Positions 2,902-50,376 are shown, counted from the first letter of the stretch. The stretch is DNA of 55,736 nucleotides from a virus (IMGVR_UViG_3300045120_000268:1-55736), one strand, 5' to 3'. Numbers and translations: made by a program. The notes: generated by a model not told the origin, from the letters alone.

Positions 2902-4026
2902 GTGTACGCCTATGACGTCACGCAGGTCGCCACCCGCGCACCCGACGGGTCGAACTTCACCCCCCTCGGCACCTTGGGTCACGTCACCCCCGCCGTCTAC
3001 TCCGACACGCTCCCCGGCGGCAACGACTCCCTCACCTGCACCCTCCAAATCCCCCCCTCCTACCGGCATCCCGCGTTCGACCCCGGCCGCATCCTCGAGG
3101 CATACAGGGGCGGCAGCAAAATCTGGGAGGGGATCCTGGGGGAGCCGCAGCCGGGTGACGGCGGATGGTCGCTGACCGCGCAGGGGGCGGGGAACTACGG
3201 CGACCGGTACCTGTCCATCTGGACCGTGTGGAACCAGAACAACCCGATCGACGCCGCGATCGTCCGCGGGCTGCGCTGGAACAAGCCGTCGTTCGCGTCC
3301 ACGGGGCTGTATCTGGCTGAGCAGCAGGACAGCGGGTCACAGACGATCAGCGACTTCTTGACGTTGGTCACAAGGCCTGGGGCGTACACGTGGCATGTGG
3401 GGCGCAGGAACACCTTGAGCGTGTTCCCGATCCCCACCACGCCGACCAGGATCCTGATGGCTGGCAGCCCCGCCGCGAGGAGCCTGGCCGGCTACATCAA
3501 CGCCTTGACCGGCCGCTACCAGTCCGCCGACGACAACGCCACCACCGGCGCCGCCGCGACCTTCGCCCTCACCACCGCCACCAACGCCGCCAGCATCGCC
3601 AAGCACCTGCGGACCGAGGCGTTCTGGGACATCACCCAGGCCGGCACCATCTCCGGCGGCGCCGCTGGCGGGTTCGTCGCCCAGGCCCTCACCCTCTACC
3701 AGGCCGCCTCATGGGCGGGGCCGCTCACCGTCCGGTACGGCTCCTACACCACCATGACCGGCGTCCCCGTCGACCTGGGCTGTGAGGTCGCGGGGGAGGT
3801 CGTCCAGTTGCAGCTGGCCGACGGCCCGTACGGCGGGGAAGTGTCACCGTCGCCTCCGGTGACGTTCCCCGTCGGGCGGGTCGAGTATGACGACGGGGCG
3901 CAGGTGCTGTCGGTGACGCCGTTCCAGTCGGTGCCGAACGACCTGCCGTCGCTGCTGTCGGCGCTCGCCACCACACTGCCCACCCCCGCGCCACCACCCA
4001 CCACACAGCCGATGATCTCCGCATAA
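2902..4026 (+). CDS. Minor tail protein (baseplate hub/Tal-like)
   Basis: 374 aa; LEAYRGGSKIWEGIL resembles the hub-protein motif; position in tail cluster. Confidence 0.65.
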   Translation: MYAYDVTQVATRAPDGSNFTPLGTLGHVTPAVYSDTLPGGNDSLTCTLQIPPSYRHPAFDPGRILEAYRGGSKIWEGILGEPQPGDGGWSLTAQGAGNYGDRYLSIWTVWNQNNPIDAAIVRGLRWNKPSFASTGLYLAEQQDSGSQTISDFLTLVTRPGAYTWHVGRRNTLSVFPIPTTPTRILMAGSPAARSLAGYINALTGRYQSADDNATTGAAATFALTTATNAASIAKHLRTEAFWDITQAGTISGGAAGGFVAQALTLYQAASWAGPLTVRYGSYTTMTGVPVDLGCEVAGEVVQLQLADGPYGGEVSPSPPVTFPVGRVEYDDGAQVLSVTPFQSVPNDLPSLLSALATTLPTPAPPPTTQPMISA

Positions 4027-4043
4027 CCGGAAACCGGGGGACG

Positions 4044-4697
4044 ATGGCCGCCGACGACCCCCGCGACGGGCACCAGCCCGACTGGCGCCCCGTCCCGGAT
4101 CCAACGACCCTGACGACCGAGCAGCTGCGCCGCGAACTGTCCGCGCTCCGCGAGATCCTCACCGCCCGCCTCGACGGCATGGACCGCGCCACCGACCTCC
4201 TGTCAGAGACGGTCAACCGCACCCCCACTGTCATCCAGACCGAGATCGCGCACCTCCGCGAACTGATGAACGAGAAGCTCGGCAGCCTCGGCGGGCAGGC
4301 CGAAGAGAAGTTCCATTCGATCGAGTTGCAGTTCGTGGAACGGGACGTCCGCACCAACCAGGCCGCCACCGCCAGCGCCCAGGCCCTCGCCGCCGCGCTT
4401 CAGGCCGCGAAAGAAGCCGTGTTCGAGCAGGCGCAGGCCGCCGCCAAAGCCGCCGAGAAAACCGAACTGTCGTTCACCAAGCAGATCGACCAGATCCAGT
4501 TGCAGATCAAGACGATCGGCGACGGGTTCGGCGACCGGCTCGCCGAACTGAAAGAACGCATCGACCGGGGTGAAGGCAGCACCACCGGCGCGGCGGGACT
4601 GCGCACCGAACGGCGCCTCGATTATGGGCAGGTCCTCGCTGGCCTCGCCGTCGTTGTCGCCGTCGTTGTCGCCGTCATCTCCATCCTTCACCAGTAG
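4044..4697 (+). CDS. Coiled-coil protein with C-terminal TM anchor (lysis-cassette associated)
   Basis: Long helical region ending in LAGLAVVVAVVVAVISILHQ. Confidence 0.7.
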   Translation: MAADDPRDGHQPDWRPVPDPTTLTTEQLRRELSALREILTARLDGMDRATDLLSETVNRTPTVIQTEIAHLRELMNEKLGSLGGQAEEKFHSIELQFVERDVRTNQAATASAQALAAALQAAKEAVFEQAQAAAKAAEKTELSFTKQIDQIQLQIKTIGDGFGDRLAELKERIDRGEGSTTGAAGLRTERRLDYGQVLAGLAVVVAVVVAVISILHQ

Positions 4698-5194: not shown

Positions 5195-5214
5195 AGCCGC
5201 ATCATAGAAGGAGC

Positions 5215-5397
5215 GTGGTTCAAATCTTCGGTATAGCTAGCATCGTCGCGTTCGCCATCGCCTTGCTGATGCACCTGTTCGGCTGGGGCTCCGGCAAGGT
5301 CGACGAGACCCTGTTCACCCTCATCGGGCTGCTGTGCCTGGCGGTCCATGTGGTGACCGGCTGGTGGGGACCAGTCCGCCGCCACCCGGCAGCCTGA
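5215..5397 (+). CDS. Small 2-TM membrane protein (holin-like)
   Basis: Two hydrophobic helices; GAAGGAG RBS. Confidence 0.65.
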   Translation: MVQIFGIASIVAFAIALLMHLFGWGSGKVDETLFTLIGLLCLAVHVVTGWWGPVRRHPAA

Positions 5398-5398
5398 C

Positions 5399-5668
5399 AT
5401 GGCCGCACCAGTAGAGGCCAAGGTGACCGCTGGGTCGCTGTCCGCCGCCGCTGCAGGGGTCGCGCTGTGGGCGCTCCAGACCTACGTGTTCAAGAACGGG
5501 ATGCCCGCCGGGGCCGAGTCGCTGGTGTACCTGCTCGTGCCCGCCATCATCGCGTTCGCGGGTTCGTATGTCGCGCCGCACACACACCGGCCGGACCTCC
5601 TGCCCCCGCTCGTGTCCCCGCCGTCCCCGGCGGCCCCGCCGCTGCCGCCAGCCGGGCCAGTCGCATGA
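5399..5668 (+). CDS. Holin (actinobacterial type)
   Basis: MAAPVEAKV start, 2 TM segments, YVAPHTHRP end. Confidence 0.7.
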   Translation: MAAPVEAKVTAGSLSAAAAGVALWALQTYVFKNGMPAGAESLVYLLVPAIIAFAGSYVAPHTHRPDLLPPLVSPPSPAAPPLPPAGPVA

Positions 5669-5823
5669 TCATCCTCGGCATCATCCTGGTCATCGCCGGG
5701 CTCGTCCTCCCGCAGCTGGCGATCCTGATCACCATCGGGATCATCCTCATCGTCATCGGCGTGGTTCTGCTGATCCTCGGCCACGCCGGGCACGCGGTAG
5801 GCGGCAGGCGGCACTGGTTCTGA
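5665..5823 (+). CDS. DUF6131-like small membrane protein
   Basis: MIILGIILVIAG...GHAVGGRRHWF; ATGA overlap with upstream gene. Confidence 0.75.
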   Translation: MIILGIILVIAGLVLPQLAILITIGIILIVIGVVLLILGHAGHAVGGRRHWF

Positions 5824-6074
5824 TGACCACACCCCAGGGCAGCGAATGCTCCTGCGTCCTCTGCGGCCACACGTTCACCGGCCTCACCCTCTTCGACGCC
5901 CACCAAGACGTCGACTACGGCCGGGAGCCGGTCATCGTCTGCCGCGACCCCACCGGGCTAGGACTGGCGCAGGACGCCCGGGGTACCTGGGGTACCCCCG
6001 AAGGGATCGCAAGCCGGGATTTCCACGCCACGAGGCTCGCACGGGCCAACGCTGAACGCCGGGCCCAGGCGTGA
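5823..6074 (+). CDS. Phage FDxHR-type zinc-binding protein
   Basis: CVLCGHTFTGLTLFDAHQ...CRDP. Confidence 0.7.
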   Translation: MTTPQGSECSCVLCGHTFTGLTLFDAHQDVDYGREPVIVCRDPTGLGLAQDARGTWGTPEGIASRDFHATRLARANAERRAQA

Positions 6075-6641: not shown

Positions 6642-6824
6642 ATGCCACCATCCGACGAGTTCGACACCATCATCCAGGCCGTCAACGCCGGCTACCCAGC
6701 GCCGGGAGCTGGTCCCGTGAAACCGTCGTCTCATCCGGTGCTGTGGTTCGCTGCGGGGACCGGGCTGTGGGTGGTGGACGGGATACTGCTGTACCTGTTC
6801 CTGTGGCTCCTGCTGCACGGGTAG
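6642..6824 (+). CDS. Small membrane protein
   Basis: C-terminal TM segment; overlaps the tail of a convergent ORF. Confidence 0.45.
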   Translation: MPPSDEFDTIIQAVNAGYPAPGAGPVKPSSHPVLWFAAGTGLWVVDGILLYLFLWLLLHG

Positions 6825-7062
6825 CCCGCGCCGCAACGAGCTCGGCGCGTCGGCGCCTCGACACCGACACCTGCGCCGCGCCAGCCATCACCACCAGCCA
6901 CGCCACCACACCCAGCGCCCACGCATAACCCGACGCGACCACCCACCACAGGCCAGCCGCCGCCGCCGCCAGCCCAACGACCCGGGCGATCGTCCGCCGC
7001 GCGTGCCACAACTGATGCGGGCACGAACAATACGGCCTCAGATTCTCAGGCGTACACATCAC
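6682..7062 (-). CDS. 2-TM membrane protein (transfer-module accessory)
   Basis: GAGGGAG RBS; two TM segments followed by RRRR. Confidence 0.55.
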   Translation of the reverse strand: MMCTPENLRPYCSCPHQLWHARRTIARVVGLAAAAAGLWWVVASGYAWALGVVAWLVVMAGAAQVSVSRRRRAELVAARATRAAGATGTGTAVSRPPPTARSPQRTTAPDETTVSRDQLPALGSRR

Positions 7063-7135
7063 TTCTCCCTCACGGTTGACTAGGCCGGAGGGGATGCGGC
7101 AGCTACGTCCTGTCGCATCCCCTCACCCGGCGTCC

Positions 7136-7285
7136 TTACTTGCCCTTGCCGCCGTTCGGCTTGTTGTTCGGGTTGTTCTTGCTGTCGCGGCCGTAGTCCT
7201 TGTCGTTCTTCGCCACCTTCGCGGACCACTTGGCCACGTCGCCGCTCTTGCTGTCGTCCTTGCTGCTGCTGCTGAACAGACCCAT
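7136..7285 (-). CDS. Small Lys/Ser/Asn-rich protein
   Basis: GGGAGG RBS; 49 aa. Confidence 0.55.
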   Translation of the reverse strand: MGLFSSSSKDDSKSGDVAKWSAKVAKNDKDYGRDSKNNPNNKPNGGKGK

Positions 7286-7329
7286 CGTGGGCCTCCCTTC
7301 ACCCGCGCCGGGACCATCCCGGCCGGGAG

Positions 7330-7573
7330 TCACTTATCCTTGAGGCGGAGGACGCGGCGCCCCCAGCGGGGCACCCGCCCCTTGTCACAGCGGCGGCAGC
7401 ATCGTCCGCGCCCGGCATTCACCCGCCGCATACGACCACACCCACCCGGGGTGCTTCCCCCCGCCGCCGCACCGGTGACACGCCCGCGTCGGATTCCGTG
7501 ACAGCGAGTAACGGTAGCTCCCGGCAGCCAGGACCAAAATTGCTACCGTGAGTAGCCATCCTTGGGTGGTCAC
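7330..7573 (-). pseudogene. TM plus CxxCxGxG zinc-finger protein with apparent frameshift
   Basis: First frame has TM-CHRCGGGG and stops at 7385; the adjacent frame continues CRRCDKGRVPRWGRRVL to a stop at 7330. Confidence 0.5.
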
Positions 7574-7586
7574 CGACCCGCCTCCT

Positions 7587-7601
7587 GTCACACAGCGTCA
7601 C
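7587..7601. promoter_or_regulatory. BldD-box-like site
   Basis: GTCACACAGCGTCAC matches nTnACnCWGnGTnAn; adjacent to the RBS of 7573(-). Confidence 0.5.
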
Positions 7602-7738
7602 AGTCACTCCGGGTAGCATGTCCCTTTTGTCCTAGTTCTGTCCCAGTCGAGGGAGACACGAGCGACGAAGTCGCTCGCAAGAGCGTGCGAGTCTCCCCGC
7701 ACGCCAGGTTCATGATCATCTGGAAGGTGCCGGGAACC

Positions 7739-7797
7739 ATCACGCTGCGTCACCTCGCCGGAATCGGGCACGCAGAGTGGCGACCACGCTGCGTGAC
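7739..7797. promoter_or_regulatory. Cluster of three BldD-box-like sites
   Basis: 7739-7753 perfect match, 7767-7781 two mismatches, 7783-7797 one mismatch. Confidence 0.5.
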
Positions 7798-8411
7798 GGC
7801 GGCGCGGGCGGTGGTGGTCGCTGACCGTAACCGGCGTACCGGACCATCAGCGTGTGCAGATGCACCGCCGGGTAGTCCAGCCGTTCCGCCGCCGTCTCCA
7901 GCGTCACCCCCGACCACACCATCTCAGCGCCGTCCTCCGCGAGCTTCACCACACACTCATGGCATCGGCGGCCGCCCTTGCCCACGAAGCCGCCGCAGCG
8001 GGCATGGTTGAGGCACGGCTGCGGCGGCTTCGGTTCCCGGGGCGGACGGTTCCGGGCACGGTCCTCCACCCGGTTCTGCAGCGGCGTCCCATACACCAGG
8101 TTCCCGGCGCCCGAACGGCAGCCGTCCTCACCGCCCGGGGCCCACCGGTTGTCCAGCGGGTCGTCGTTCCAGTGCCGGGCTTCCATCCCCTCCGGGCACG
8201 GCCCCTCGAAGGTGAGCAGGACGACGCTGTGGACGGTGCGCGTCTCCCGCTTCCCCTCATCGGAGACCATCTTCACCAGCGGGTAGCCGGTGCCGCTGTG
8301 GCTGCGGGTCGTGGCCATGATCTCGCCACCGGGGCGGCGCCGGATCCGGCCGGCGTCGCTGGCCAGGTACCGGCCGAACCCCGGGATAGGCTTCCACGTC
8401 TCATCCATCAT
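7740..8411 (-). CDS. NUMOD4-HNH endonuclease
   Basis: ETWKPIPGFGRYLASDAGRIR; HSVVLLTFEGPCPEGMEARHWNDDPLDNR...NLVYGT. Confidence 0.85.
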   Translation of the reverse strand: MMDETWKPIPGFGRYLASDAGRIRRRPGGEIMATTRSHSGTGYPLVKMVSDEGKRETRTVHSVVLLTFEGPCPEGMEARHWNDDPLDNRWAPGGEDGCRSGAGNLVYGTPLQNRVEDRARNRPPREPKPPQPCLNHARCGGFVGKGGRRCHECVVKLAEDGAEMVWSGVTLETAAERLDYPAVHLHTLMVRYAGYGQRPPPPAPPSRSVVATLRARFRRGDAA

Positions 8412-10144
8412 CGGTTCCTCCCTGCCACATAGGCGTACAAGTCCGCCGGATCCCAGATGCGGGCGTTGCCCCGGTACCCCAGTTCCTTCGGGAACCCGTC
8501 GCGCTGGGATGCCTTCTGGGCTGCGCCGAGCGCACGGTGATAATCCCGGCCCGTGAATATGCCCTCCCGCACCGCCTCGCTGAGCGTTATCCCCTGGGGC
8601 AGTTCAGGGACATGTCCCTGAGACATCCGCAGGTCAGGAGCCCCCATAGGCAAGGCCACACGATCTGGGACAGCGATCCCCGGCATCCCCGCCGGGCACG
8701 GCGTCACCACACCCGCGACGGCGAGCTCCCGCGCCTGCTCGAGGTCCATCAGCGGTGTCTGCGCCTCGCTGATCGTCGCACCGGCGACGCACTGGACGCG
8801 GCCGATGACGTCCGGCGACGGAGGCATCGGCACGTCGCGGCCGACGAGCATGTTCCACGAGCCCTGCTGGTAGCGGGCCAGGCAGCGGACACCGATGTTC
8901 TCCCGCACGGAGCCACCGCCGAGGATTTCCGCGGTGAGCTGCTGGGCGATGATGATCTCATGCATGTCTACCGCCCGGCCCGCGAACGAGACCCGCGCCA
9001 TCCCCGTCAGCGCGGGGGATTTCTTCGGCGGCTCTTTCCCGCCGTGGGTGTCTGACCAGTCCTGTTTCACCACCGGGTCGCCCCAGTGCTCTTTCAGCAG
9101 CGGTGCCGCGAGGTTCAGCTCTTCCACGACGACCCACAGCCGGGGGCCGACGCTGCCGAGCAGGGTGCCTTTGGCGTTGATGATGCGTTCGGCGACCTGG
9201 TTGCGGCGCTCGAGTTCGTCGCTGAGCCACACCATCGCGTCATGCAGGTCAGAGGTGCGGCGGGCGTAGCCGACGTTGGGGATCTGGCCGTATTCGGCGT
9301 CCATGTCCTTGAACACCCACGGGTGGGAGAACAGCTTCGCGTCGAGGATGAGCGCGACCGCGCCGCGCTGCAGGTCCTGCACCAGCCAGAACGTCGTCAA
9401 GTTCGACTTGCCGGCCCCGCTGCCCATCGCGACGCCAAAATGGGGGGAATCGAGGTTGAGGGAAATTTTGACGGTCTTGCCCTGTTTCCCGATCCCCACC
9501 ATGAGCTCGTCGCGGCCCAGGGCCGCGACCCGCTGCTCAACGTCGTTTCCCCAGGTCACGAGGCTGGGTGGGGGTTCGCTGTGGGTGTAGACGACGTACC
9601 TGGCGCGGCCTTGCAACTGCCGGTCCACTGAGGGTGCCTCAATGCCGAGGGTGACACTGACGGTGTTGTCCAGCGCTGCCCACTCCCGGTCGGTGCCCAT
9701 CCACTCCGCCGGCAGCCACACCTTCGCCCGGGTCCGGTCGGGTTCGATCTGCAGCCGTGGCGGTACGCCCTCGAGCATCGGCGCGAGGCGGCGCTGCAGC
9801 GGCCGGACGTAGCGCCAGTGATGCGGCAGGTGCCGAAGCCGCCGGAACCACAGCCACCAGCCACCCACGCCGAGCGCGGCCAGGACCACGGCGGCGACAG
9901 CGCCGAGGGTGACGGTGCGGGCCGCCAGCAGGCCGTACAGCAAGCCGAACAGGGCGACGGTGCCGCCGGTGCGGACCGCGGCGTGGCGGCGGCGGCGCCA
10001 GCGGCGCGGGCGCGGCTGGCCGTCGAGGTCCAGGCCGGTGAACCAGCGCCACATGACCTGGACAAGCCAGGACTGGCTGGCCTTGCGCCACAGCCACGCG
10101 GCGGTAAGGCCAGCCAGCACCGTCAGGACGACCGCTGCTGCCAC
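8408..10144 (-). CDS. FtsK/SpoIIIE-family DNA translocase (TraB/TraSA-like)
   Basis: N-terminal TMs, Walker A GSGAGKS, Walker B VVVEE, GRAVDMHEIIIAQQ, C-terminal wHTH-like domain. Confidence 0.8.
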   Translation of the reverse strand: MAAAVVLTVLAGLTAAWLWRKASQSWLVQVMWRWFTGLDLDGQPRPRRWRRRRHAAVRTGGTVALFGLLYGLLAARTVTLGAVAAVVLAALGVGGWWLWFRRLRHLPHHWRYVRPLQRRLAPMLEGVPPRLQIEPDRTRAKVWLPAEWMGTDREWAALDNTVSVTLGIEAPSVDRQLQGRARYVVYTHSEPPPSLVTWGNDVEQRVAALGRDELMVGIGKQGKTVKISLNLDSPHFGVAMGSGAGKSNLTTFWLVQDLQRGAVALILDAKLFSHPWVFKDMDAEYGQIPNVGYARRTSDLHDAMVWLSDELERRNQVAERIINAKGTLLGSVGPRLWVVVEELNLAAPLLKEHWGDPVVKQDWSDTHGGKEPPKKSPALTGMARVSFAGRAVDMHEIIIAQQLTAEILGGGSVRENIGVRCLARYQQGSWNMLVGRDVPMPPSPDVIGRVQCVAGATISEAQTPLMDLEQARELAVAGVVTPCPAGMPGIAVPDRVALPMGAPDLRMSQGHVPELPQGITLSEAVREGIFTGRDYHRALGAAQKASQRDGFPKELGYRGNARIWDPADLYAYVAGRNR

Positions 10145-10704
10145 TAGGCGCCCCCGTGCCCGTTGAAGGCTGCCTTGACGGCTGCGCGCTCCCGCTTCTG
10201 GACGAGCCTGGCCGTCTTCGGCGAGACCCCCTCATCGGTCATGATCTTCCGTTGCGGTTCGGGCTGCCAGGCAGTTACACGCGGAGTTACAGCTGGCGGG
10301 GTCGTGCGGGCGGTGCGGCGCACCATCAGGATCGACATCTCCGCGCACCCGATGAACGCATACGCCGGCCACCCCGAAATCAGCGCCCCGGTGACACCGG
10401 ACGCGGCGCCGTAGGCGACGTTCGCGGCCAGTGTGGCGAGCACCGACGACAGGAGCATCACCTGCGCCAGCCACGGCGCGGCGAGACGCAGCCGGGCGGC
10501 GCGCAACAGGACGAGGCTGGAGGCGACGACGGTCCCGTCGATGGAGAACGGCAGCAGCACCGCCGCCAGCTGGGTCTGCCCGTGGGTGGCCGCGAGATCC
10601 CGGATGTGAATGAAGCTCACGGTTGCCGCGATGGCGGCGACGAACAGCACCGCGGCGGCGGTGCCGCGCCGGATCCACCGGTCGGGTTCTGTACGGTTCT
10701 GCAT
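10144..10704 (-). CDS. DUF2637 / SpdA-like 4-TM protein
   Basis: VAAIAATVSFIHIRDLA...HGQ...LLPFSIDG...ATLAANVA...WPAYA. Confidence 0.85.
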   Translation of the reverse strand: MQNRTEPDRWIRRGTAAAVLFVAAIAATVSFIHIRDLAATHGQTQLAAVLLPFSIDGTVVASSLVLLRAARLRLAAPWLAQVMLLSSVLATLAANVAYGAASGVTGALISGWPAYAFIGCAEMSILMVRRTARTTPPAVTPRVTAWQPEPQRKIMTDEGVSPKTARLVQKRERAAVKAAFNGHGGA

Positions 10705-10833
10705 CAGGACCTCACTCGGTTTGGGGTCTTAGGCCAGCGGGAGGCGTTTGCGCGCTAACCGCTGGCCGCCATAACTCATAGGTGGTGGTGGTGGGCACTG
10801 GGCATCACCTCCTACTCGGTTCAGGCTTGGGGT

Positions 10834-11178
10834 CTAGGTGCCTTCGATTGGCGATACGGGAGGCATGCTGATCTCAAGATCAACGCGCCACTTAACGAAC
10901 GATCCGGCATTGAGGTCCCAGATCCGCACAAGCTCGCTGACGTGAAAGCCCGACCCTTCCAGCAGCCAGACAGCACGCAGGCCGGAATGATCTCCACCGC
11001 CGAAGTAGATCACCGGATGTGGGTAGGCATGGCCCGGGCCACCCTGACAGGACGAGCCTGTCAGGACGCCATGATCGCGGAGAAGGATCACCGCATCGCG
11101 GATACCCGGATCGAGATCCGCGCGGATATCTTCCTCTGCCGGTTCCCATTTCTCGAAAGTGGCTGGGGTATCAGTCAT
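10834..11178 (-). CDS. Hypothetical phage protein (SCxG..H motif)
   Basis: LDPGIRDAVILLRDHGVLTGSSCQGGPGH. Confidence 0.65.
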   Translation of the reverse strand: MTDTPATFEKWEPAEEDIRADLDPGIRDAVILLRDHGVLTGSSCQGGPGHAYPHPVIYFGGGDHSGLRAVWLLEGSGFHVSELVRIWDLNAGSFVKWRVDLEISMPPVSPIEGT

Positions 11179-11194
11179 CCCTGCATCCTCCCTC

Positions 11195-11308
11195 TCAGTC
11201 GCCGCCGCGGTAAGCGGCCACGACCCACAGCGCCGTCCCCGCCGCGGCCACCAGCAGCACGACCGCCCACAGCGCCCACCACCGCCAGCGCACCCACCAC
11301 CGCCTCAC
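11195..11308 (-). CDS. 37-aa Trp/Arg-rich membrane peptide (not in ORF track)
   Basis: MRRWWVRWRWWALWAVVLLVAAAGTALWVVAAYRGGD; GTGA-coupled to upstream gene. Confidence 0.5.
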   Translation of the reverse strand: MRRWWVRWRWWALWAVVLLVAAAGTALWVVAAYRGGD

Positions 11309-11490
11309 CTCTCCCGCCGGGCGATCCACGCACGGACCTGGTCCCGCAGGTCCGTCCAGTCCTCACCCGTCAGCCAGGGCGACGGCGACGTCCTCAGCCG
11401 CCGCGCGTGCGGCAGCCGGTCCACCCCCACCGAGAACCGCCAGCCGGGAAACTCGCGTTCAAGATCCATCTGTCTCAGCTCGTCATCCAT
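11305..11490 (-). CDS. Small hypothetical protein divergent from GntR
   Basis: LEREFPGWRF; GGAGGGG RBS. Confidence 0.6.
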   Translation of the reverse strand: MDDELRQMDLEREFPGWRFSVGVDRLPHARRLRTSPSPWLTGEDWTDLRDQVRAWIARRER

Positions 11491-11531
11491 CTTCCGATCC
11501 CCCTCCAAGGTGTTCTACTATACTAACCACA

Positions 11532-11545
11532 TGGTGCCTATACCA
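11532..11545. promoter_or_regulatory. Candidate GntR operator
   Basis: TGGT-GCCTAT-ACCA inverted repeat in an AT-rich divergent promoter region. Confidence 0.35.
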
Positions 11546-11589
11546 GAGACTGGGCTCTATCGGCACGCAGGGGGTCCGATCACTACGTT

Positions 11590-11835
11590 GTGCAGGTGCA
11601 AATTGATCATGAGTCGGACGTGTTCCCGTACCGGCAGGTAGCGGACCAGCTCCGCGCGGCGATCGACGCCGGCGAATACGGGCCTGGCCGCAAGATCCCG
11701 TCGCTGCAGGCGCTGGTCCGTGAGACCGGGCTCGCGGTCGAGACGATCCGCCGCGCCATCCGCGTCCTCGTCGACGAGGGCGTCGTCTACACGGTGCAGG
11801 GCCGGGGCACATTCGTCAGCAAGGAGCGGAAATGA
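11590..11835 (+). CDS. GntR-family wHTH regulator (Kor-like, DNA-binding domain only)
   Basis: PYRQVADQLRAAIDAGEYGPGRKIPS...TIRRAIRVLVDEG...GRGTFV. Confidence 0.92.
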   Translation: MQVQIDHESDVFPYRQVADQLRAAIDAGEYGPGRKIPSLQALVRETGLAVETIRRAIRVLVDEGVVYTVQGRGTFVSKERK

Positions 11836-12997: not shown

Positions 12998-13048
12998 CCA
13001 TCGTGTGGTCTATCTGAGTATCTGGCAGGAGTGGACTCACACTGATGG
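12998..13048. other. Candidate attP
   Basis: 51-bp imperfect inverted repeat CCATC-GTGTG-GTCTA...TGGACTCACACTGATGG abutting the integrase start. Confidence 0.5.
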
Positions 13049-14484
13049 CCGGGTCTGTGACAAGCAGAACTGAGCCGCTGGAGGCCGGGATCTACTGCCG
13101 CCTCAGCCTCGCCCGCGACGGCGACACCACCAAAGTCGACGAGCAGGAACGCATCTGCCGCGAACTGCTCCGCCAGCGCGGATGGGAACCAGTCACCGGC
13201 TGCGGCTACCCCGACCCCAACGGCGTCTACACCGACAACAGCAAATCCGCGTGGAAGAAAAACACCAAACGCCCCGCGTGGGACCAGATGCTCACCGACG
13301 TCGACGCGGGCAAGCTCGCCGCGATCGTCGTCTACCACGGCGACCGCCTCGTCCGGCAGCCGTTCGACCTCAACCACCTCATCAAGCTCGCCGACGGCCG
13401 TGGTCTCAGGATCGCCAGCCCCACCGGCGACCGCGACCTCGACAACCACGACGACCGGTTCGTCCTCCGCATCCTCACCGACGTCGCCTGCAAAGAATCC
13501 GACGACACCTCCCGGCGGATGAAGACCGGCCACGCCCGCCGGCGCCGCGCTGGCATCGTCACCACCGGCGGCCGCGGCGGCAGGCTGTTCGGATTCGCCA
13601 AGGACGGCGTCACCCACGTCCCCAAGGAGGCGGCGATCGTCCGCGAGGTGACCGCCGCGATCCTCGCCGGCGGTTCCGTCCGCCACATCGCCGCGGACCT
13701 CCGGGAGCGGGGCGTCACCACCACGGCCGGGAAGCCCATGCACCCGCTCGCCATCCGCCGCATGATCGGCTCGCCGCGCTATGCCGGGCTGATGCCCGGC
13801 GGCGTCTCAGCTGCAGCATGGGCTCCCATCGTGGAACGCGAAGACTGGGAGATGGCGACCGCGTTGCTGGACAGCCGCGGCGGGATGCTGCCGGCGGGGC
13901 ACAATGCAGGCAAGTACCTGCTGTCCGGCCTGGCGGTGTGCGGGGTGTGCGGGCGCGGCCTTCAGGTGCTGCCCGCGCACACGGCGCGCTGGACGGGGAA
14001 GCCGGTTCACGTGGCGGCGCGGTACGGATGCCTGCGGGACGGCTGCCGCAAAGTGTTCCGCGACCTGGCTCTGCTCGACGGGTACGTATCGGCCCGCGTT
14101 GTGGAACGTCTGAACAACCCCGCCAGCCCGCCCGGGCGCCTGCCGTCCACGCCGGGACTGGCTGTCGAGCTCCGCGCACTGGCCGAGGAGCGCGAGCAGG
14201 TCGAGGCCGCGATTGCCGACCACACCAAGGGCCGACTCGCCGTTCTCCTCTTGCGCCTCGACTCCCTCGACACGCGGCTCGCCGATATCCGGGAGCTGGC
14301 CGGGGCCGGCGCACAGGCCCGCGTCCTCGGCCGCCATGCGGGCCTCAGCCTGGACGAGTTCGCAGGCCTCGAGCTTGGCGTTCGCCGGGCACTCGTCTCT
14401 GGGTGCTACAAAGTGGTAGTCCTGCCAGCGTCGGCCCGGGGGCCGGGGTTCCGCACGGACGACGTGACCCTGGAACCCCGGTGA
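13045..14484 (+). CDS. int: Large serine integrase
   Basis: IYCRLS catalytic motif, DNSKSA, DRLVR, recombinase domain, YLLSGLAVCGVCG zinc ribbon, coiled coil. Confidence 0.95.
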   Translation: MAGSVTSRTEPLEAGIYCRLSLARDGDTTKVDEQERICRELLRQRGWEPVTGCGYPDPNGVYTDNSKSAWKKNTKRPAWDQMLTDVDAGKLAAIVVYHGDRLVRQPFDLNHLIKLADGRGLRIASPTGDRDLDNHDDRFVLRILTDVACKESDDTSRRMKTGHARRRRAGIVTTGGRGGRLFGFAKDGVTHVPKEAAIVREVTAAILAGGSVRHIAADLRERGVTTTAGKPMHPLAIRRMIGSPRYAGLMPGGVSAAAWAPIVEREDWEMATALLDSRGGMLPAGHNAGKYLLSGLAVCGVCGRGLQVLPAHTARWTGKPVHVAARYGCLRDGCRKVFRDLALLDGYVSARVVERLNNPASPPGRLPSTPGLAVELRALAEEREQVEAAIADHTKGRLAVLLLRLDSLDTRLADIRELAGAGAQARVLGRHAGLSLDEFAGLELGVRRALVSGCYKVVVLPASARGPGFRTDDVTLEPR

Positions 14485-14821: not shown

Positions 14822-15163
14822 CTATTGGGCCGGTGGTAATGCCGTCCGGCGTGCGTGCTCCCGTTTCGCACGACGGAGGTCGAAGATCAGGCCGCGCCGT
14901 TCCTCGTCGCTGCCGAGGGTGAGGTCGTCCCACACGGCCCGTTCGACCGGGTCGGTGTAGACCTCCGGGCCCGTGCCGTTGAGCAGGCTGATGCCCAGGA
15001 CATCCTCGATCGCGCCTTCGGTGCGGTCCGGGCGCTGCTTGTTCCGTTCCCACGCGGAGACGGTCGCCCGGTTGACGTCGAGACGGTCGGCGAGTTCCTG
15101 CTGGGTCCACTTGAGCGCCTGGCGGCGCAGGCGGATGCGCTCGCCAAGGGACCTGTCAGCCAT
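14822..15163 (-). CDS. Immunity repressor (XRE HTH)
   Basis: LGERIRLRRQALKWTQQELADRLDVNRATVSAWE; divergent from the Cro-like gene. Confidence 0.88.
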   Translation of the reverse strand: MADRSLGERIRLRRQALKWTQQELADRLDVNRATVSAWERNKQRPDRTEGAIEDVLGISLLNGTGPEVYTDPVERAVWDDLTLGSDEERRGLIFDLRRAKREHARRTALPPAQ

Positions 15164-15330
15164 GGCCGATATCAAAACCCACAACGCATCAAACGTCAAC
15201 CGGATGCAACGAACCACCGCAAAGGTTCACAAAGTGTCACCACCTCGCAACCCCTCAATGTTCAGGCAGGTAGCAGCGTTTTGTGAAATGCGACTTGCGG
15301 TGTTGCGTTGGGTTCGGTAGCGTGCTCGGC
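15164..15330. promoter_or_regulatory. Lysis/lysogeny switch region with inverted repeats
   Basis: AT-rich; CAACGCA, CACCGCAA and TTCACAAA are mirrored by TTTGTGAA, TTGCGGTG and TGCGTTG. Confidence 0.7.
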
Positions 15331-15573
15331 ATGGCACTTCGTAAGGCGAACGGCGTTGCGATTCGCGAGTTCCGCAAGGCCCTGGGGATCTCCCCCGCTG
15401 AACTCGCGGCATCGGCCGGTGTGGACAGGTCCACGCTGTGGCGGATCGAGGTCGGGACACACCAGCCCCGGCCGCCGACGTTGTGGAAGATCGCCGAACG
15501 TCTCCAGGTGCCGCTCGGCGCGATCAGCAGCACGATCCCCGAACCCGAACCCGAGGATCGGGTGGCGTCGTGA
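15331..15573 (+). CDS. Cro-like XRE HTH
   Basis: IREFRKALGISPAELAASAGVDRSTLWRIE. Confidence 0.88.
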   Translation: MALRKANGVAIREFRKALGISPAELAASAGVDRSTLWRIEVGTHQPRPPTLWKIAERLQVPLGAISSTIPEPEPEDRVAS

Positions 15574-17387
15574 TTTGCCGCAGCCTCGACGAGGTTTACG
15601 CCGCCGCCAAAGCCGACGCCGCCGATGAGCCACCGCTCGACCAGGACACCGCCGACCTCATCGCCGCGATCCTCGCACCCACCCGCACCAAGGACGGGGA
15701 CGCAGCCGCATGAACCACTTACCCGGCCCCCGGGGGGGAGCGGCCACACCAGCCTGACAACAGAACGGGCCGCCGTCCACCAACGGCAGCCCGTCCCCGG
15801 TCCCGCCCGGTGAGAACCCGAGCGGGAAGCCCGGGACAGGACCAGCACCAATCATAGGAGAACCCGAGCGAAATGAGCAGCAACAGCATCACCGTCAACA
15901 TCTACATGCGTGACGGCGCACCCGGGCCGCAGGTCCGCGACGCCACCGGAGGCGGCGCCCCGCTCGTCGTTGTCGAGTTCGGCGATTTCCCCTCCACCGC
16001 GTCCATCAGCGTCTCCTCCGTGGAGCAGGTGGACAGGCTGACGGCCGCGCTCGCTGTGGCGAGGGAACTGCTGACCGGCGGCGCGTCATGACCGCCCGCC
16101 TCGGCTACGTGGTCGCGGAAGTCAACCAGGCCAGTCACCAGGCTGAGCGGCTGACAACTGACGACCTCCACTGGGACCAGGAATGGGCCGAAGAAGTGGC
16201 CCGGATGTACCGCGACGACGCCCGCGAACGGGGCCGCCGTGAGCGGTACATCGTGTGCGAGGTCGTCCCGGTAGAGGACGCGTCATGATCCCCGTCCCAG
16301 GGCATCCCATCCATGCGATCGCCCTCCTGCCCGGCGACGACATCCACCTCGCACCCCACGACATCGAAGGCATCGACTGGGAGGGCCACCACTGGCGGGA
16401 GCACGTCGAATGCGCTGAGGCCGACGTCCAGGTCGACCGGGTCCGCCGCGAAGGCCCGGACAAGGCGTCGGTGTACTGGCACCAGGGGCCGTCGGTGACT
16501 GGGGTGACGGTGTATGGGCCGACGAGCCTCATCCCCCTCCTGCGGCGGGTGGCGTGATGACCCTCAACGCCGCTGGCGACCTGCGCCGCGAGGTCGGGAA
16601 GGGGCAGGCGACAGCGACCTGCTTGCACCGCAAGTACGGCGGCCAGTGCGACTTCATCGTCCGAAACGTCTGGCCCGCACAGGCGGGACGGCGAGCGCGA
16701 GCACACACCCGCGAGACCGGCCACATAACCCAGGTCAGGTACGAGCACATCACTGAGTACCTTCCCGGGACGACAGCATGAGCGGCGTCTACACGGTGGA
16801 GGCTTTCCGCCGCGCCGCCCCCCCAGAGACCCCCACCCGGCCCGCGCCCACCACATGGAACGGCCGCACCCTCGACCCCCACGAGCAGGCCATCGTCGCT
16901 GAGGGGCTGGCGCAGGAACTGGAACACGGCCACCAGCTCATCGCCGGGTGCCAGTCATGAGGCGCACGAACGTACGCGGCCATGCCCTCCGCAGCGAGGG
17001 CAAGTCCTATGGCCCGAGCCGTGACGACCCGTCGCAGTTTGAGCGCTGGCGCGGCCACATCGGCTACGGCCTGTGCGAGTGCGGCGCCCACTCCGACTGC
17101 GAGTGGAGCAACGCCGCCCGCCAGCGCTGGCACGCCACCCACAAGGCAGAAGTGAAGGCCACGTCGTGAGGCCCGCGACGGTGGTCATGCGTGACCCGCT
17201 GCTCCCGCACCAGATCTACGTTGGCAAACGGTGGCACCCCATCCGTGGCACCTACTGGCTGTACGTCAGCTGCAACTGCTTGCACGTCGCCGGGGACGTG
17301 TACGACCCGCTGGACACCCGCGAACTGTACGAACCCGGCGAGGCCCGCGCGATCTGGCGCGCTCACATGGCGGAGGTAGCGGCGTGA
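15570..17387 (+). other. Run of small, mostly coupled early genes (15570-15713, 15873-16091, 16088-16288, 16285-16557, 16554-16781, 16778-16960, 16957-17169, 17166-17387)
   Basis: Consecutive ATGA/GTGA overlaps; several Cys/His motifs. Confidence 0.65.
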
Positions 17388-21875: not shown

Positions 21876-22577
21876 GTGCCTTGGGTCCGGTTCGATGACC
21901 AGTACCCGCTCCACTACAAGGTGGCCGGGCTGAGCGACAAGACGTACCGCCTCGCCACCGAGGCGATCTTCTGGTGCGCCCGCAATCTCACTGATGGACA
22001 CATTTCTGCGCAAAACCTGCACCAGATCCGTCCCGCACTACGCTCCCCAGCAAGTCACGCGGCGGTACTGGTTTCGCAGCGCCTCTGGCACCCAGCGGGC
22101 GAAGGCTGCGACGCGGAGAAGTGCCCCGCGCCGGTCGCCGGTGACGGCTGGGTCATCCATGACTACTGGCAATACCAGCCAACCAAGACCCAGGTCGTCA
22201 AGGAACGCGAGGCCGCAGCGAGACGGCAGGCGAAGTTCAGAGCCGCCCATAACGCTGTTAGTAACGCCGTTACTACACCCGTGACTGATGGCGTTACACC
22301 CCCCGTGACTAACGCTTCCCCGACCCGTCCTTATATAGGTACAGGTCCGTTCCAAGGTGACCCCCCCGCGCGCGCGCGCGCGAGACCCACCCCAAATCCC
22401 AGCGGGCAAGTCAACCCCGGCGAGGGTGCCGCAGCACGCCACCCATCCGCCAGACCACTCGCTGCCGCACTTGAAGACGCAGGCGTCAACGGCAAGCCAG
22501 CGAGCGACGAGACCGTCAACGCAATCGTCGCCAGCATCCGCCACGCCATCACCCCGCCGCCCAAGGACCCGCCATGA
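21876..22577 (+). CDS. Replication initiator protein
   Basis: MPWVRFDD...KVAGLSD...WCARNLTDG...GWVIHDYWQYQP, followed by a repeat-rich linker. Confidence 0.75.
   Translation: MPWVRFDDQYPLHYKVAGLSDKTYRLATEAIFWCARNLTDGHISAQNLHQIRPALRSPASHAAVLVSQRLWHPAGEGCDAEKCPAPVAGDGWVIHDYWQYQPTKTQVVKEREAAARRQAKFRAAHNAVSNAVTTPVTDGVTPPVTNASPTRPYIGTGPFQGDPPARARARPTPNPSGQVNPGEGAAARHPSARPLAAALEDAGVNGKPASDETVNAIVASIRHAITPPPKDPP
22250..22316. repeat. Iteron-like repeats, candidate origin
   Basis: TAACGCTGTTA, TAACGCCGTTA, TGATGGCGTTA and CCCGTGACT x2 inside the rep linker. Confidence 0.55.
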
Positions 22578-22699
22578 CTGACGACGCGCGGTGCCCAATC
22601 TGCGTCTACCAGGCCAGCCCCAGCGGCTGGCGGCTCCGCCTCATCCACCCCCGATGCCCCCAACACGGCGGCCACCCCCACTGGAAAGTGACCACATGA
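22574..22699 (+). CDS. 41-aa Cys/His protein, paralog A
   Basis: Ends [15 protein letters not shown]; not in ORF track; coupled at both ends. Confidence 0.55.
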
Positions 22700-23202
22700 C
22701 CCTCCGCACCGGCATCCCCTGCGCCGCCGCCTACCTGGCGACCATCGTCGGCGCGAACTGGGCCGTCCACCGCTTCGGCGTCGTCCCTGTCGGCTTCGGC
22801 TACCTCGCCCCCGCCGGCGTGTACTTCGTCTCTGCCGCGCTGGTGCTCCGGGACGCCGTCCAGTACACCCTCGGCAAGATCATCACCCTCGCTGTCATGG
22901 CCGCTGGCGTCGCGCTCTCAGCGCTCGTCGCCGGACCGCAGCTCGCCCTAGCATCCGGCGCAGCGTTCGCCGTCTCCGAAACCCTCGACTTCGCCCTGTT
23001 CACCTGGATAGCGCCCCGCTGGGCCCTCGCCGTCGCCGTGGGCGGCTTCGTGGGCCTCGTCGCCGACTCGATCGTGTTCCTGACGCTGGCGTTCGGGTCC
23101 CTGGAGTTCCTGCCTGGGCAGATCCTCGGCAAGTCCTACGGCGTGATCGTGGCGTCGCTGGTGATCGCATGGCGCAGACGCAGGAGGGTGGCGACCGCGT
23201 GA
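22696..23202 (+). CDS. yhhQ: VUT/YhhQ-family preQ0/preQ1 transporter
   Basis: TIVGANW...APAGVY...LVLRDAVQ...[17 protein letters not shown]...[11 protein letters not shown]...GQILGK. Confidence 0.8.
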
Positions 23203-23438
23203 CTGACTTGATCACATTCCTGCTCGCCCGGCTAGACGAGGACGAGGACGCGGCACATATGGCAGAAGCCGTACGCGCCATCCTGACTGAATACGCGCCA
23301 GTCGCCCGCAACGATGACGGCTCCCATGAGCCTGAGTACGCCTATGGATGGGCCGATGCCCTGGGGATGGCTGTGCGCGCCCTCGCCGCCTCCTACCGGG
23401 ACCACCCGGACTACGACCCGGCGTGGGACCCAGCGTGA
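23199..23438 (+). CDS. DUF6221-like protein (second paralog)
   Basis: [10 protein letters not shown]...[15 protein letters not shown]. Confidence 0.7.
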
Positions 23439-24226
23439 TGAAGTTCTACCTCGGCACCCACGAAACCAGCTGGCTCGCCCGGGTGGACTTCCCGCTGTTC
23501 GTCTCCCACATGCGCCTCCGCCAGCGCAAGACGCTGCCCCGCGCCCGCCACCCGTGGGCGCTCGACTCCGGCGGGTTCACCCAGCTCGCCCAGCACGGCA
23601 GCTGGACATTCACCCCCCGCCAGTACGTGACCGCGGTCCGCCGCTACGCAGACGAGATCGGCAGCCTGGAGTTCGCCGCACCGATGGACTGGATGTGTGA
23701 GCCGTTCATGACCGCCCGCACCGGCCTACCCGTCCACGAACATCAGCGCCGCACCACCGCGAACTACCTGGAACTGCGCCACATCGCCGGCGACCTGCCG
23801 TGGATCCCCGTCCTCCAAGGCTGGGAACCCGGCGACTACCTCCGCCACGCCCACGGCTACCTCCGCCACGGCATCGACCTCGCTGGCCTCCCACGTGTCG
23901 GCATCGGCTCCGTGTGCCGACGGCAGGACACCGCGCTAGGAGACTGGATCATCCGCTCCCTGGCACCCATCCGGCTCCACGGCTTCGGCATCAAAACCGG
24001 TGGCCTGCTCCGCTCCGGCCACCGGCTCACCTCCGCCGACTCGATGGCCTGGTCCTACAACGCCCGAAGGCACCCACCGCTAGACGGCTGCACCCACGGC
24101 AGCTGCGCCAACTGCCCACTGTGGGCAGCCCGCTGGCGCAGGAAAGTCCTGGCCAAATTCGCCGCCACCGAGGCAGCGGGACGGCAAGGCGACCTGTTCG
24201 ACCCCGACGAGGCGTGGGCGTCATGA
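23438..24226 (+). CDS. dpdA: DpdA-like 7-deazaguanine DNA transglycosylase (TGT superfamily)
   Basis: WALDSGGF, APMDWMCEP, IPVLQG, VGIGSVCRR, LHGFGIK, SADSMAWS, C-terminal CTHGSCANC. Confidence 0.8.
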   Translation: MKFYLGTHETSWLARVDFPLFVSHMRLRQRKTLPRARHPWALDSGGFTQLAQHGSWTFTPRQYVTAVRRYADEIGSLEFAAPMDWMCEPFMTARTGLPVHEHQRRTTANYLELRHIAGDLPWIPVLQGWEPGDYLRHAHGYLRHGIDLAGLPRVGIGSVCRRQDTALGDWIIRSLAPIRLHGFGIKTGGLLRSGHRLTSADSMAWSYNARRHPPLDGCTHGSCANCPLWAARWRRKVLAKFAATEAAGRQGDLFDPDEAWAS

Positions 24227-30849: not shown

Positions 30850-31161
30850 ATGGCACGGTGGAAGGGCACCACCACCCAGCGCGGCATGGGCAGCGGACAC
30901 CAGCGCCTGCGTCAGCAACGGCTAGCCGTGTACCGGCCGGGTGACATATGCACCCACGGCGGCGAACCCATGTTCTACCCGCCGCCCGTCCGGGTTAACG
31001 GGCGGCTTGTCTCCCCGTTCCTCGACCTGCCGCACACGGCGGACCGCAGCGGCTACCTGCCCGGCCTCTCATGCGCACACCACAACCGCAGCGAAGGCGT
31101 GACCAGGCGCAACCGCATGCGTGGCGTGGCCAGCACATGGCGCACAGCACGTAGATGGTGA
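30850..31161 (+). CDS. Terminase-associated HNH-like protein
   Basis: TTQRGMGSGHQRLR...LDLPH...SCAHHNRSEG; last gene before terS. Confidence 0.65.
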   Translation: MARWKGTTTQRGMGSGHQRLRQQRLAVYRPGDICTHGGEPMFYPPPVRVNGRLVSPFLDLPHTADRSGYLPGLSCAHHNRSEGVTRRNRMRGVASTWRTARRW

Positions 31162-31445
31162 CCACCCAGTACGGAGGGTGGACATGGATGGTGGACAGGA
31201 TGGGTGCATGGTTGATGGTGACCATGCACACGGAGGGTGACCATCATAGGGACTGCCTACCACCCCACCACCACCCCACCATCCGGCCCTCCTACCACCC
31301 CACCACCCACTGATCGACCATCCAGGGTCCTGACCTGCGACGATGACCACCCTTCGAATCGGCGATGAACTTCGGACCATCTCGTATGACCCCACAGCCA
31401 ACGTTCATACACGCAGAGTTACCGCTCACGTGATCAGGAGGGTTC
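31162..31445. other. Putative cos/packaging-site region
   Basis: Non-coding gap between HNH and terS; repeats ACGGAGGGTG x2 and CCTACCACCCCACCACC x2; C-to-G skew flip. Confidence 0.6.
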
Positions 31446-33402: not shown

Positions 33403-33621
33403 GTGCGGTTGTCGGTCGTGCTGCTGCTGGTGTCGCTGGCTGGTGTGCTGGGCGGCGCGGCGCTGATCGGCCTCCCCGCGCTCGGTGCCGCGGTCATCTT
33501 CGACAGCCTGTGCGTCGGCGTGTGGGCGCTGGCGCGTGATGACGGCCTGCCGTCGGTGCGGGCGGTGCGTGGGACGCCGACGGTGGCGCAGGCGCTGGAA
33601 CGGTTCCGGGACGCCGCGTGA
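33403..33621 (+). CDS. Small 2-TM protein before portal
   Basis: AGGAGG RBS; coupled to portal. Confidence 0.7.
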   Translation: MRLSVVLLLVSLAGVLGGAALIGLPALGAAVIFDSLCVGVWALARDDGLPSVRAVRGTPTVAQALERFRDAA

Positions 33622-41200: not shown

Positions 41201-41211
41201 GGCGCTGACAT

Positions 41212-50337: not shown

Positions 50338-50376
50338 ACACCCACCATAGCACCATCCCGGCTATTAGGAGATCCC

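Follow-up and report, generated by a model that had tools for sequence, protein, structure and literature searches.

A DUF2637 gene paired with a Pfam-invisible FtsK-like ATPase gene in a temperate actinophage, and its possible role in capsid-free spread of phage DNA

Results

The viral record IMGVR_UViG_3300045120_000268 (55,736 nucleotides; the window, by which we mean the whole of this stretch of DNA) comes from a complete temperate phage of a soil actinomycete and carries on its minus strand a small module in which a gene for a DUF2637 integral membrane protein directly precedes a gene for a membrane-anchored ATPase of the FtsK/TcpA fold. Genes were called by the GC content of third codon positions (GC3) and then scanned against PHROGs and Pfam. 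The DUF2637 protein (10144-10704, 186 aa; PF10935, E 5.3e-14; phrog_733, E 6.7e-11) has three to four hydrophobic segments, in keeping with the DUF2637-like membrane gene named in the original prediction, which was made from this DNA alone. It is followed by the ATPase gene (8408-10144, 578 aa), which we place in the pRL2-11/"Tra protein" family, and then by a gene for an endonuclease with NUMOD4 and HNH_3 domains (7740-8411, 223 aa); the leftward operon listed in the original prediction held the first two of these genes and overlooked the third. Because stop and start codons overlap by 1 nt between the DUF2637 and ATPase genes, and by 4 nt between the ATPase stop and the start of the HNH gene, the three genes are translationally coupled. 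Divergent from this operon, on the plus strand, lies the gene for a mini GntR-family regulator (11590-11835, 81 aa; PF00392, E 8.1e-18 over residues 13-76), whose winged helix is 35-39% identical to those of pIJ101 KorA and the pZL12 GntR protein. The operon stands under this small divergent gene of its own and is separate from both the early operon led by cro and the late one. The 81-bp control region between them (11509-11589) is AT-richer than its surroundings, has no match to a sigma-70 consensus, and contains two GGTG...CTATAC words that may be operators of the GntR protein.

The ATPase finds no family match in Pfam (E <= 0.01), PHROGs, PADLOC or NCBIfam, and PF01580 (FtsK_SpoIIIE) matched nothing in the six frames of the record even at E 10. 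The NCBIfam TraD models were considered and set aside, with scores of 15 bits against cut-offs of at least 366. In a word-indexed search that scored 8,000 candidates, 129 proteins reached E <= 1e-5; of the 120 matches listed, none has a Pfam domain, and all of the named ones are called hypothetical. When the window ATPase was aligned with 47 of those 120 (48 sequences in all), G245 and K246 of the Walker A motif (GSGAGKS, 241-247), together with E341, E342, Q401 and R424, were invariant, the Walker A and B labels being those assigned in this analysis.

An AlphaFold model built on the 48-row alignment (pLDDT 90.3) begins with N-terminal helices (1-124) that hold three hydrophobic segments; a small beta domain and the alpha/beta core (200-480) follow, and a disordered linker (494-514) leads to a compact C-terminal domain (515-578). 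Foldseek against the PDB ranked TcpA, the conjugation coupling protein of pCW3 (E 7.4e-15), and the FtsK motor (E 3.2e-14) first, with EccC/EssC (1e-9 to 1e-6), HerA (about 1e-5) and VirB4 (about 1e-4) at lower ranks, and TcpA is also the only PDB sequence match, albeit a weak one (E 0.034). Because of this ranking we regard the modelled ATPase as a motor of the FtsK branch and not of the HerA type; the grouping with HerA proteins that the original prediction had named as a danger to its own proposal is not what the fold suggests. We note that TcpA and FtsK, although the best structural matches to the core, share only 15-18% identity with it and differ from it in their N- and C-terminal domains, and that TcpA works within a multi-protein Tcp apparatus. 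The earlier description as a "TraB/FtsK" ATPase therefore stands for the membrane anchor and the FtsK/TcpA fold, that is, at the level of fold, and not for family membership.

The C-terminal domain carries the conserved motif TL-EA...R-A..R...FP.P.G.RG....Y...L..W and, folded alone from 33 sequences (pLDDT 89.6), is modelled as helix-helix-hairpin-helix. Foldseek of this domain against the PDB found nothing at E <= 0.001; the list, headed by a row at E 0.55, consists mostly of winged-helix, excisionase, BldC and MerR-type proteins, and the domain is thus weakly like a small winged helix of the excisionase/MerR kind. The winged-helix-turn-helix likeness put forward earlier is a fair description, while a likeness to FtsK-gamma is not borne out. 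The combination of an N-terminal membrane anchor with a C-terminal domain that is winged-helix-like is that of TraB.

Relatives of the ATPase are scarce among isolated phages. A tblastn search of 50,697 phage records at E <= 1e-5 found only Streptomyces phage Dagobah, whose protein (309 aa, annotated as hypothetical, 30% identity; BLASTP E 1e-24) corresponds to the core only, and a DNA-level search of the 5.15-kb block against the same records gave no match. The same kind of search found relatives in 58 plasmid records at E <= 1e-5 and in 63 at E <= 1e-3, 59 of these 63 being from Streptomyces, at about 24-34% identity and under such labels as "pRL2-11", "DUF87 domain-containing protein", "cell division protein FtsK" and "Tra protein". 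By BLASTP, a protein of an S. goshikiensis plasmid aligned at E 1e-57 (33% identity) and the "Tra protein" of pFRL6 at E 2e-47 (33% identity over 337 aa).

The closest described gene arrangement is that of the linear Streptomyces plasmids pRL2 (NC_007927), which has 20 kb and no other translocase, and pFRL6 (NC_023286). In pRL2 the gene for a GntR protein of 245 aa is divergent from an operon that opens with a sigma factor gene and, after four small genes, reaches DUF2637 (351 aa) and pRL2-11 (517 aa); in pFRL6, DUF2637 (445 aa) is followed by "Tra protein" and "conjugal transfer protein" and then, after further genes, by an "ATP-binding protein". The window shares with both a homologous ATPase (33% identity, E 2e-47 to 1e-57) and a homologous DUF2637 gene directly upstream, and with pRL2 the GntR gene divergent from the operon; the profile of the phage DUF2637 proteins aligned with the pRL2 DUF2637 protein at an hhalign probability of 82% (E 1e-5). 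By sequence and gene order the ATPase belongs to the pRL2-11/"Tra protein" family with its upstream DUF2637 partner. The differences are that the plasmid DUF2637 proteins are much longer (351-445 aa versus 186), that the GntR protein has 245 aa on pRL2 versus 81 here, that the "conjugal transfer protein" and "ATP-binding protein" of pFRL6 are absent, and that the carrier here is a tailed phage. The resemblance to plasmid transfer layouts that had been claimed for this locus consequently holds for the pRL2 type, in gene order and in the homologous ATPase and DUF2637, and fails for the pSAM2/pIJ101 type. Literature searches found no experimental proof of function for the module genes of pRL2 or pFRL6, and none of the literature found deals with the function of DUF2637.

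A scan of IMG/VR with the ATPase alignment revealed a relative in 62 loci, all of whose open reading frames (ORFs) were then searched with profiles made from the window genes. A DUF2637 homologue occurs in 32 of the 62, upstream on the same strand in 23, downstream on the same strand in four, downstream on the opposite strand in four, and as an overlapping call in one. A GntR homologue was found in 13 loci, in ten of which it is divergent from the ATPase gene and less than 2 kb upstream of it, and a serine integrase like that of the window in four; in one relative (L004) the same layout adjoins a serine integrase. Few other window genes recur (73 window ORFs were compared with the 62 loci), and the module is therefore shared among phages that are otherwise different. 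Whole records were searched for 50 of the 62 loci, the other 12 lying on the shortest contigs, all of 23.5 kb or less. An HK97 capsid gene (PF05065) is present in 32 of these 50 records; among the 23 records with a completeness of 90% or more it is found in 15. This is the outcome for co-occurrence with virion genes, which the original prediction had proposed as a check. IMG/VR may include misfiled plasmids, with 18 of the 50 records lacking a capsid match by PF05065 alone.

The HNH gene (Pfam NUMOD4, E 5.1e-07, and HNH_3, E 1.8e-06; phrog_1492, E 1.9e-23) is labelled "homing endonuclease" by PADLOC (E 7.6e-07). Of the 62 related loci, 21 have an HNH ORF; in 14 of these it lies next to the ATPase gene, upstream in six and downstream in eight. 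That the two genes abut in these 14 loci and in the window, frequently with a stop codon overlapping a start codon, and that a Pseudonocardia plasmid has an HNH gene two genes downstream of the ATPase, might be taken to mean that the two proteins jointly process phage DNA during lytic growth, one cutting and the other threading, or that they form a selfish HNH-linked cassette. We consider this improbable: the ATPase occurs without a detected HNH gene in 41 of the 62 loci, the HNH gene may abut it on either side, as expected of a mobile homing endonuclease and as the PADLOC label suggests, and a second HNH-like ORF already adjoins the terminase of this phage. Most simply, the HNH gene is a homing endonuclease that rides beside a conserved gene.

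The phylogeny bears on where the module comes from. A tree of 69 rows was built by the quick IQ-TREE method and midpoint-rooted, with the window protein, 57 viral ORFs of at least 450 aa (five shorter ones were dropped), the Dagobah protein, five plasmid proteins and five proteins from genome contigs. Three well-supported (starred) clades hold the window protein, with 5, 11 and 25 rows; the largest consists of 22 viral and three genome-contig rows. Four of the plasmid proteins, from what is a small plasmid sample, form one starred clade nested among viral rows. Together with the census of the 62 loci, this branching shows that the block is a native phage module; its lineage resides in phages, and the plasmid genes form one branch of it. 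A decaying fragment of an actinomycete integrative and conjugative element (AICE) or of a plasmid, inserted into the phage, would account for the nearest annotated relatives being plasmid genes, and the original prediction had raised a decaying independent insertion as a caveat; we hold this to be highly improbable. The reading frames are intact and coupled, the catalytic residues invariant, the 25-row clade largely viral and the plasmid clade nested within viral rows; the same layout stands beside a serine integrase in L004, and GC content (65-75% across the genome) shows no dip over the module.

A scan of genome contigs with a 13-row alignment found five loci only, too few to describe chromosomal contexts: a Streptosporangiaceae metagenome-assembled genome (MAG), an uncultured Actinomycetota MAG, a "delta proteobacterium" MAG and two Streptomyces contigs. 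The third of these (L068, a 130-kb contig of a MAG labelled "uncultured delta proteobacterium") encodes an ATPase relative that is 48% identical. Since all other relatives are actinomycete or viral, its taxonomic placement is possibly a binning or label error.

Discussion

The coupling of the genes, the fold and catalytic residues of the ATPase, the synteny with plasmids and the recurrence in many phage genomes are the basis on which we propose, with doubt slightly outweighing belief, that the role of the module is the capsid-free spread of phage DNA within or between mycelia. In such a scenario the short GntR-type repressor would control the divergent operon and keep its expression low, much as Kor proteins are described as repressors of toxic tra genes (PMC4447253). 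The core would be the DUF2637 membrane protein coupled to the membrane-anchored ATPase, for which a hexameric FtsK-like ring would be expected, and the winged-helix-like domain at the C-terminus of the ATPase would dock on phage DNA. Powered by ATP hydrolysis, the ring would then pump phage DNA in double-stranded form across a membrane or septum, DUF2637 serving as channel or anchor, and the excised or replicating phage genome might spread between hyphal compartments or cells without virions. Systems of comparable design are the TraB pumps of pSVH1, pIJ101 and pSAM2, in which a single protein serves for dsDNA conjugation and which likewise combine a membrane-anchored FtsK-like motor, a C-terminal DNA-binding domain, membrane partners and a divergent GntR repressor (PMC4447253). 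The module here differs from them in having no PF01580, no BLAST similarity, no Spd homology, no UTRA domain and no clt array that we could find.

Several findings weigh against the proposed spread without capsids, and the first concerns the relationship to TraB itself. BLASTP gave no alignment better than E 0.09 with pIJ101 Tra, and no match with the FtsK-domain protein of SLP2 or with pZL12.71c. The profile of the ATPase family aligned with pIJ101 Tra by hhalign at a probability of 15% (E 0.0017), colinear over the ATPase core, and gave nothing against pZL12.71c; pIJ101 Tra itself matches PF01580 (E 9.3e-10) and has a C-terminal MarR-type winged helix. Because of the BLASTP result, the weak hhalign score and the absence of PF01580, we judge the ATPase to be a distant cousin of TraB, at least by sequence comparison, and the membership in the pSAM2/pIJ101 TraB-TraSA family implied by the original prediction does not hold. 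Nor is the regulator of the Kor type in full: it is a winged helix alone, without an effector domain, whereas pIJ101 KorA combines GntR with UTRA and the GntR protein of pRL2 is three times as long. The divergent GntR gene foreseen for this position is there, yet with 81 aa and no UTRA domain it falls outside the KorSA/KorA/TraR repressor family.

The literature yielded no experimental function for any member of the clade, plasmid- or phage-borne, and "Tra protein" and "pRL2-11" are annotation names and not evidence of function. The closest clusters in the ESM Atlas have labels of 66% and 78% viral, and the family may therefore have a purpose that is purely viral. A further point concerns the docking site. 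TraB-type pumps are described as reading arrays of short repeats, namely the clt of pSVH1, pJV1 and pWTY27 (PMC3583192), and repeat finding together with exact and one-mismatch k-mer cluster scans disclosed no convincing array of this kind in the 4.7-13.1 kb region, the strongest local arrays lying elsewhere in the genome (31.1-31.4 kb, 22.4 kb and 44.7-45.7 kb). What there is within the region is a loose cluster with a GTGAC/GTCAC core (7383-7650, both strands; seven matches to TGTCACAG with at most one mismatch), just downstream of the HNH gene and spanning a terminator-like hairpin. Matches to TGTCACAG are at the level of chance genome-wide (48 against 43.2 expected), and the cluster is a weak candidate for a docking site, not significant alone.

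Short-word arrays in DUF2637 genes were looked for in the window and in 15 relatives. In L006, and also in L010, GCGACA recurs seven times on one strand within 140 nt (12933-13072 of L006), inside the L006 DUF2637 gene at codons of about 184-230; the DUF2637 protein of the window stops at residue 186, and neither a tail nor an array of this kind is present there. Two other relatives have arrays beside the pump, L003 with CGGAGC ten times in 250 nt (5214-5458) and L032 with GGGTAC six times (3822-4049).

The "SpdA-like" label that the original prediction gave the DUF2637 protein has to be given up. BLASTP found no match to pIJ101 SpdA or SpdB or to the spdB2-like protein of SLP2, and hhalign probabilities against the SLP2 protein and pIJ101 SpdB were below 1%; pIJ101 SpdA and SpdB have no Pfam family. 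An identity with SpdB2 was also considered and rejected, with about four transmembrane helices in both and no detectable homology.

The distribution of integrases speaks further against a conjugation-like role. Tyrosine integrases (PF00589) are present in 15 of the 50 records and large serine recombinases (PF07508) in five, with no record holding both; any integrase at all is thus found in 20 of the 50 and in 11 of the 23 near-complete ones (at least 90%). Because so few records have an integrase, many carriers may be lytic, a poor fit to conjugation from lysogen to recipient. The lack of an integrase in roughly half of the near-complete carriers counts against a role that depends on lysogeny; movement of phage DNA while it replicates would agree with it, and so would a function that is purely viral.

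The presence of the family in many phages without an integrase would suit a role in inheritance. The pump might, like host FtsK/SffA, clear or pump phage DNA through closing septa, and a prophage or a replicating or episomal genome would thereby reach spores or daughter compartments with no transfer from cell to cell; in fold, the ATPase matches the FtsK motor as well as it does TcpA, and phage FtsK-like genes have been linked to host development, without tests in the passages concerned (PMC13587820; 10.1101/2024.02.16.580700). We regard segregation of this kind as unlikely, given that the nearest annotated relatives stand in plasmid operons of the transfer type (in pFRL6 beside a "conjugal transfer protein") and not in chromosomal division loci, and that plasmid transfer modules share with the window both the constant DUF2637 partner and a Kor-like repressor gene in divergent orientation. 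Alternatively, a membrane complex expressed by the prophage might block or expel incoming phage or conjugative-plasmid DNA. Both core proteins are membrane proteins, and the locus, transcribed under its own repressor and separately from the lytic cascade, sits in the interval from the end of the late operon to the integrase, the usual place for accessory genes expressed in lysogens. Such a part in superinfection exclusion or defence seems to us distinctly unlikely, as the ATPase and the DUF2637 protein match none of 5,027 PADLOC models, the same pair is present on small plasmids such as pRL2 that have no other translocase, and many records with the module have no integrase.

The proposal of capsid-free spread can be extended to the family as a whole, and we offer this broader version as possible, while leaning against it. 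A large, Pfam-invisible family of membrane-anchored FtsK-like pumps with a DUF2637 partner would be native to tailed actinophages, many of them without an integrase, and would move the genome independently of capsids through septa or between hyphae; the plasmid "Tra" genes of the pRL2-11 type would be an offshoot of the phage genes and not their source, and the pump would be a bacterial counterpart of the viral movement protein. Should the pump carry phage DNA without virions, temperate, and perhaps lytic, actinophages would have a second route of transmission, one that escapes receptor-based resistance and extracellular inactivation, and the boundary between phages and conjugative elements would be blurred in the main antibiotic-producing bacteria. 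Since relatives are encoded on 62 viral contigs, 32 of the 50 records searched have an HK97 capsid gene and the plasmid proteins are nested in the viral radiation, the labels "Tra protein" and "DUF87" on Streptomyces plasmids may describe a family that is at home mainly in phages.

The idea of capsid-free spread, which the original prediction put forward as a second route beside virions, is not new, the Streptomyces plasmid-phages pZL12 (reportedly the work of Zhong et al. in 2010) and pFP4 (reportedly that of Chen et al. in 2012) being precedents. Like the window, pZL12/phiZL12 (GQ919031) is a tailed phage genome with an FtsK-like gene under a divergent GntR gene: in its GenBank record the FtsK-like gene 71c lies in a leftward operon (71c-73c) divergent from the GntR gene 80, alongside ParAB and virion genes. 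However, pZL12 is a 90-kb plasmid-prophage with ParAB and the window a 55.6-kb integrating phage, in whose record neither ParA (AAA_31) nor ParB_N has a match in six frames; the translocases are not detectably related, and pZL12.73c is not a relative of DUF2637. Of the features of plasmid-phages such as pZL12 and pFP4, virion genes and a tra-like locus, here of another family, are present, with an integrase in place of plasmid maintenance genes (ParAB/Rep). What sets the window apart from the published plasmid-phages is that it is an integrating phage with a different, Pfam-invisible translocase family, a truncated regulator and a linked HNH gene. A plasmid-phage has been described as both conjugating and forming particles (PMC4170104), and the notion of Spd proteins in phages has also been stated (PMC4447253). 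FtsK-like genes are described as common in actinophages, with no test of their role in the passages concerned (10.1101/2024.02.16.580700; PMC11536984; PMC13587820). Those of the isolated Streptomyces phages Mandalore, Naboo, Geonosis, Jaresh and AndoPrime are likewise phage-borne FtsK-like ATPases and, because the tblastn search of phage records found only Dagobah, belong to other branches.

Other features of the phage genome

The remaining ORFs of the module region are small; ORFs do lie at the positions given in the original prediction. The leftward operon begins with orf67 (11305-11508, minus strand; GC3 0.87), whose profile matches two of the 62 loci, followed by a 44-aa ORF (11195-11329, minus strand) and by orf114 (10834-11178, minus strand), a doubtful gene with a GC3 of only 0.64 and no homologues among the 62 loci. 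A terminator-like hairpin with a T-run (7533-7556, minus strand; by consensus scan only), about 185 nt past the HNH stop, is the probable end of the operon; the ORF at 7385-7591 contains this hairpin and may not be a gene. Beyond it, orf65 (7136-7333, minus strand) is hydrophilic and rich in Lys, Asn and Asp, with a GC3 of 0.91 and no homologue among the 62 loci, and orf126 (6682-7062, minus strand; 126 aa) has hydrophobic segments at 24-43 and 40-68, no Pfam, PHROG or PADLOC match, and a relative in L004 only. Because orf126 lies beyond the hairpin, its membership in the module is uncertain. As to the several small membrane proteins expected here, the one at 6682-7062 is clear and that at 7385-7591 doubtful, and the ORFs at 7136-7333, 10834-11178 and 11305-11508 have no hydrophobic segment.

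The first 127 nt of the record recur at its end, that is, the whole record is a circular assembly of 55,609 bp; in IMG/VR it is entered as a virus record of the direct-terminal-repeat class, with a completeness of 100. The PHROG and Pfam scans identified the genes for the terminase large subunit (TerL; 31726-32643), portal (33618-35084), a protease-like protein (35214-36473), the major capsid protein (36497-37909), the head-tail adaptor (46774-47661), the major tail protein (48881-49360), the tail assembly chaperone (50299-50811) and the tape measure protein (50905-54114), and a Dit-like gene that spans the circular junction. Outside the module, a large serine integrase (13045-14484, plus strand; Resolvase, E 1.2e-21; Recombinase, E 6e-11; phrog_95, E 2.3e-66) starts 1.2 kb beyond the GntR gene, at the distance first noted, and is followed by a divergent pair of cI-like (14822-15217, minus strand) and cro-like (15283-15573, plus strand) genes; a replication-initiator-like gene lies at 21876-22577. 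The circular record, the virion genes, the integrase and the cI/cro-like pair bear out the original impression of an intact temperate phage, and the integrase being a large serine recombinase agrees with its remark that no tyrosine integrase is visible. With a serine recombinase and 55.6 kb of phage genome that includes virion genes, the element is not an AICE of the pSAM2 or SLP1 type, a kind of element that has 9-24 kb, a tyrosine integrase, a Rep of the RepSA/RepAM type and Nudix/Pra accessory genes; as for an AICE-type Rep, the only replication-type match is phrog_2447, in scans that did not cover every small ORF. No tRNA genes were found in the window, and they give no hint at host or attachment site.

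The TerL gene is split over two ORFs in different frames with a 4-nt overlap (31726-32643 and 32640-33167). In one relative (L005) TerL is broken at the same junction, with the matches to the two parts meeting at one coordinate in frames 3 and 2, and this pattern suggests that TerL is either genuinely split or made by way of a conserved frameshift. Near the terminase, the second HNH-like ORF of the phage (about 30850-31160) is followed by a repeat-dense, non-coding stretch of 250 nt (within 30850-31440), with ACCACCC six times, GTGACCA four times and ACCCCAC four times. This stretch lies immediately upstream of the small ORF in front of the terminase. To judge from these features, packaging is probably HNH-dependent, with 30850-31440 as its cos/pac region.

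Between 39687 and 45731 other genes break up the virion module. One is glycosyltransferase-like (phrog_34859), two are on the minus strand (40717-41681), and two large ones (41797-43752 and 43785-45731), each encoding about 650 aa, have no Pfam or PHROG match; the second of these large genes has a second-position GC content (GC2) of 0.68 and many internal short repeats. At 22591-24226 a Vut_1/YhhQ-like transporter gene (PF02592, E 4.3e-06) adjoins a queuine tRNA-ribosyltransferase-like gene (phrog_1279, E 5.5e-93), a pair that may indicate 7-deazaguanine modification of the phage DNA. The scans of called genes identified no endolysin; after the tail genes, at 5215-5830, there are small rightward ORFs rich in Ile, Leu and Gly, which may encode holin-like membrane proteins, with a repeat family (D1) at 5666-5789. 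Just downstream of the cro-like gene, GAACCCGA occurs four times in 400 nt (15541-15940), and these copies are candidate regulatory repeats. Finally, an alternating CG run lies at 22367-22400, at the end of the replication-initiator-like gene, where CGCGCGCG occurs five times locally out of six genome-wide.

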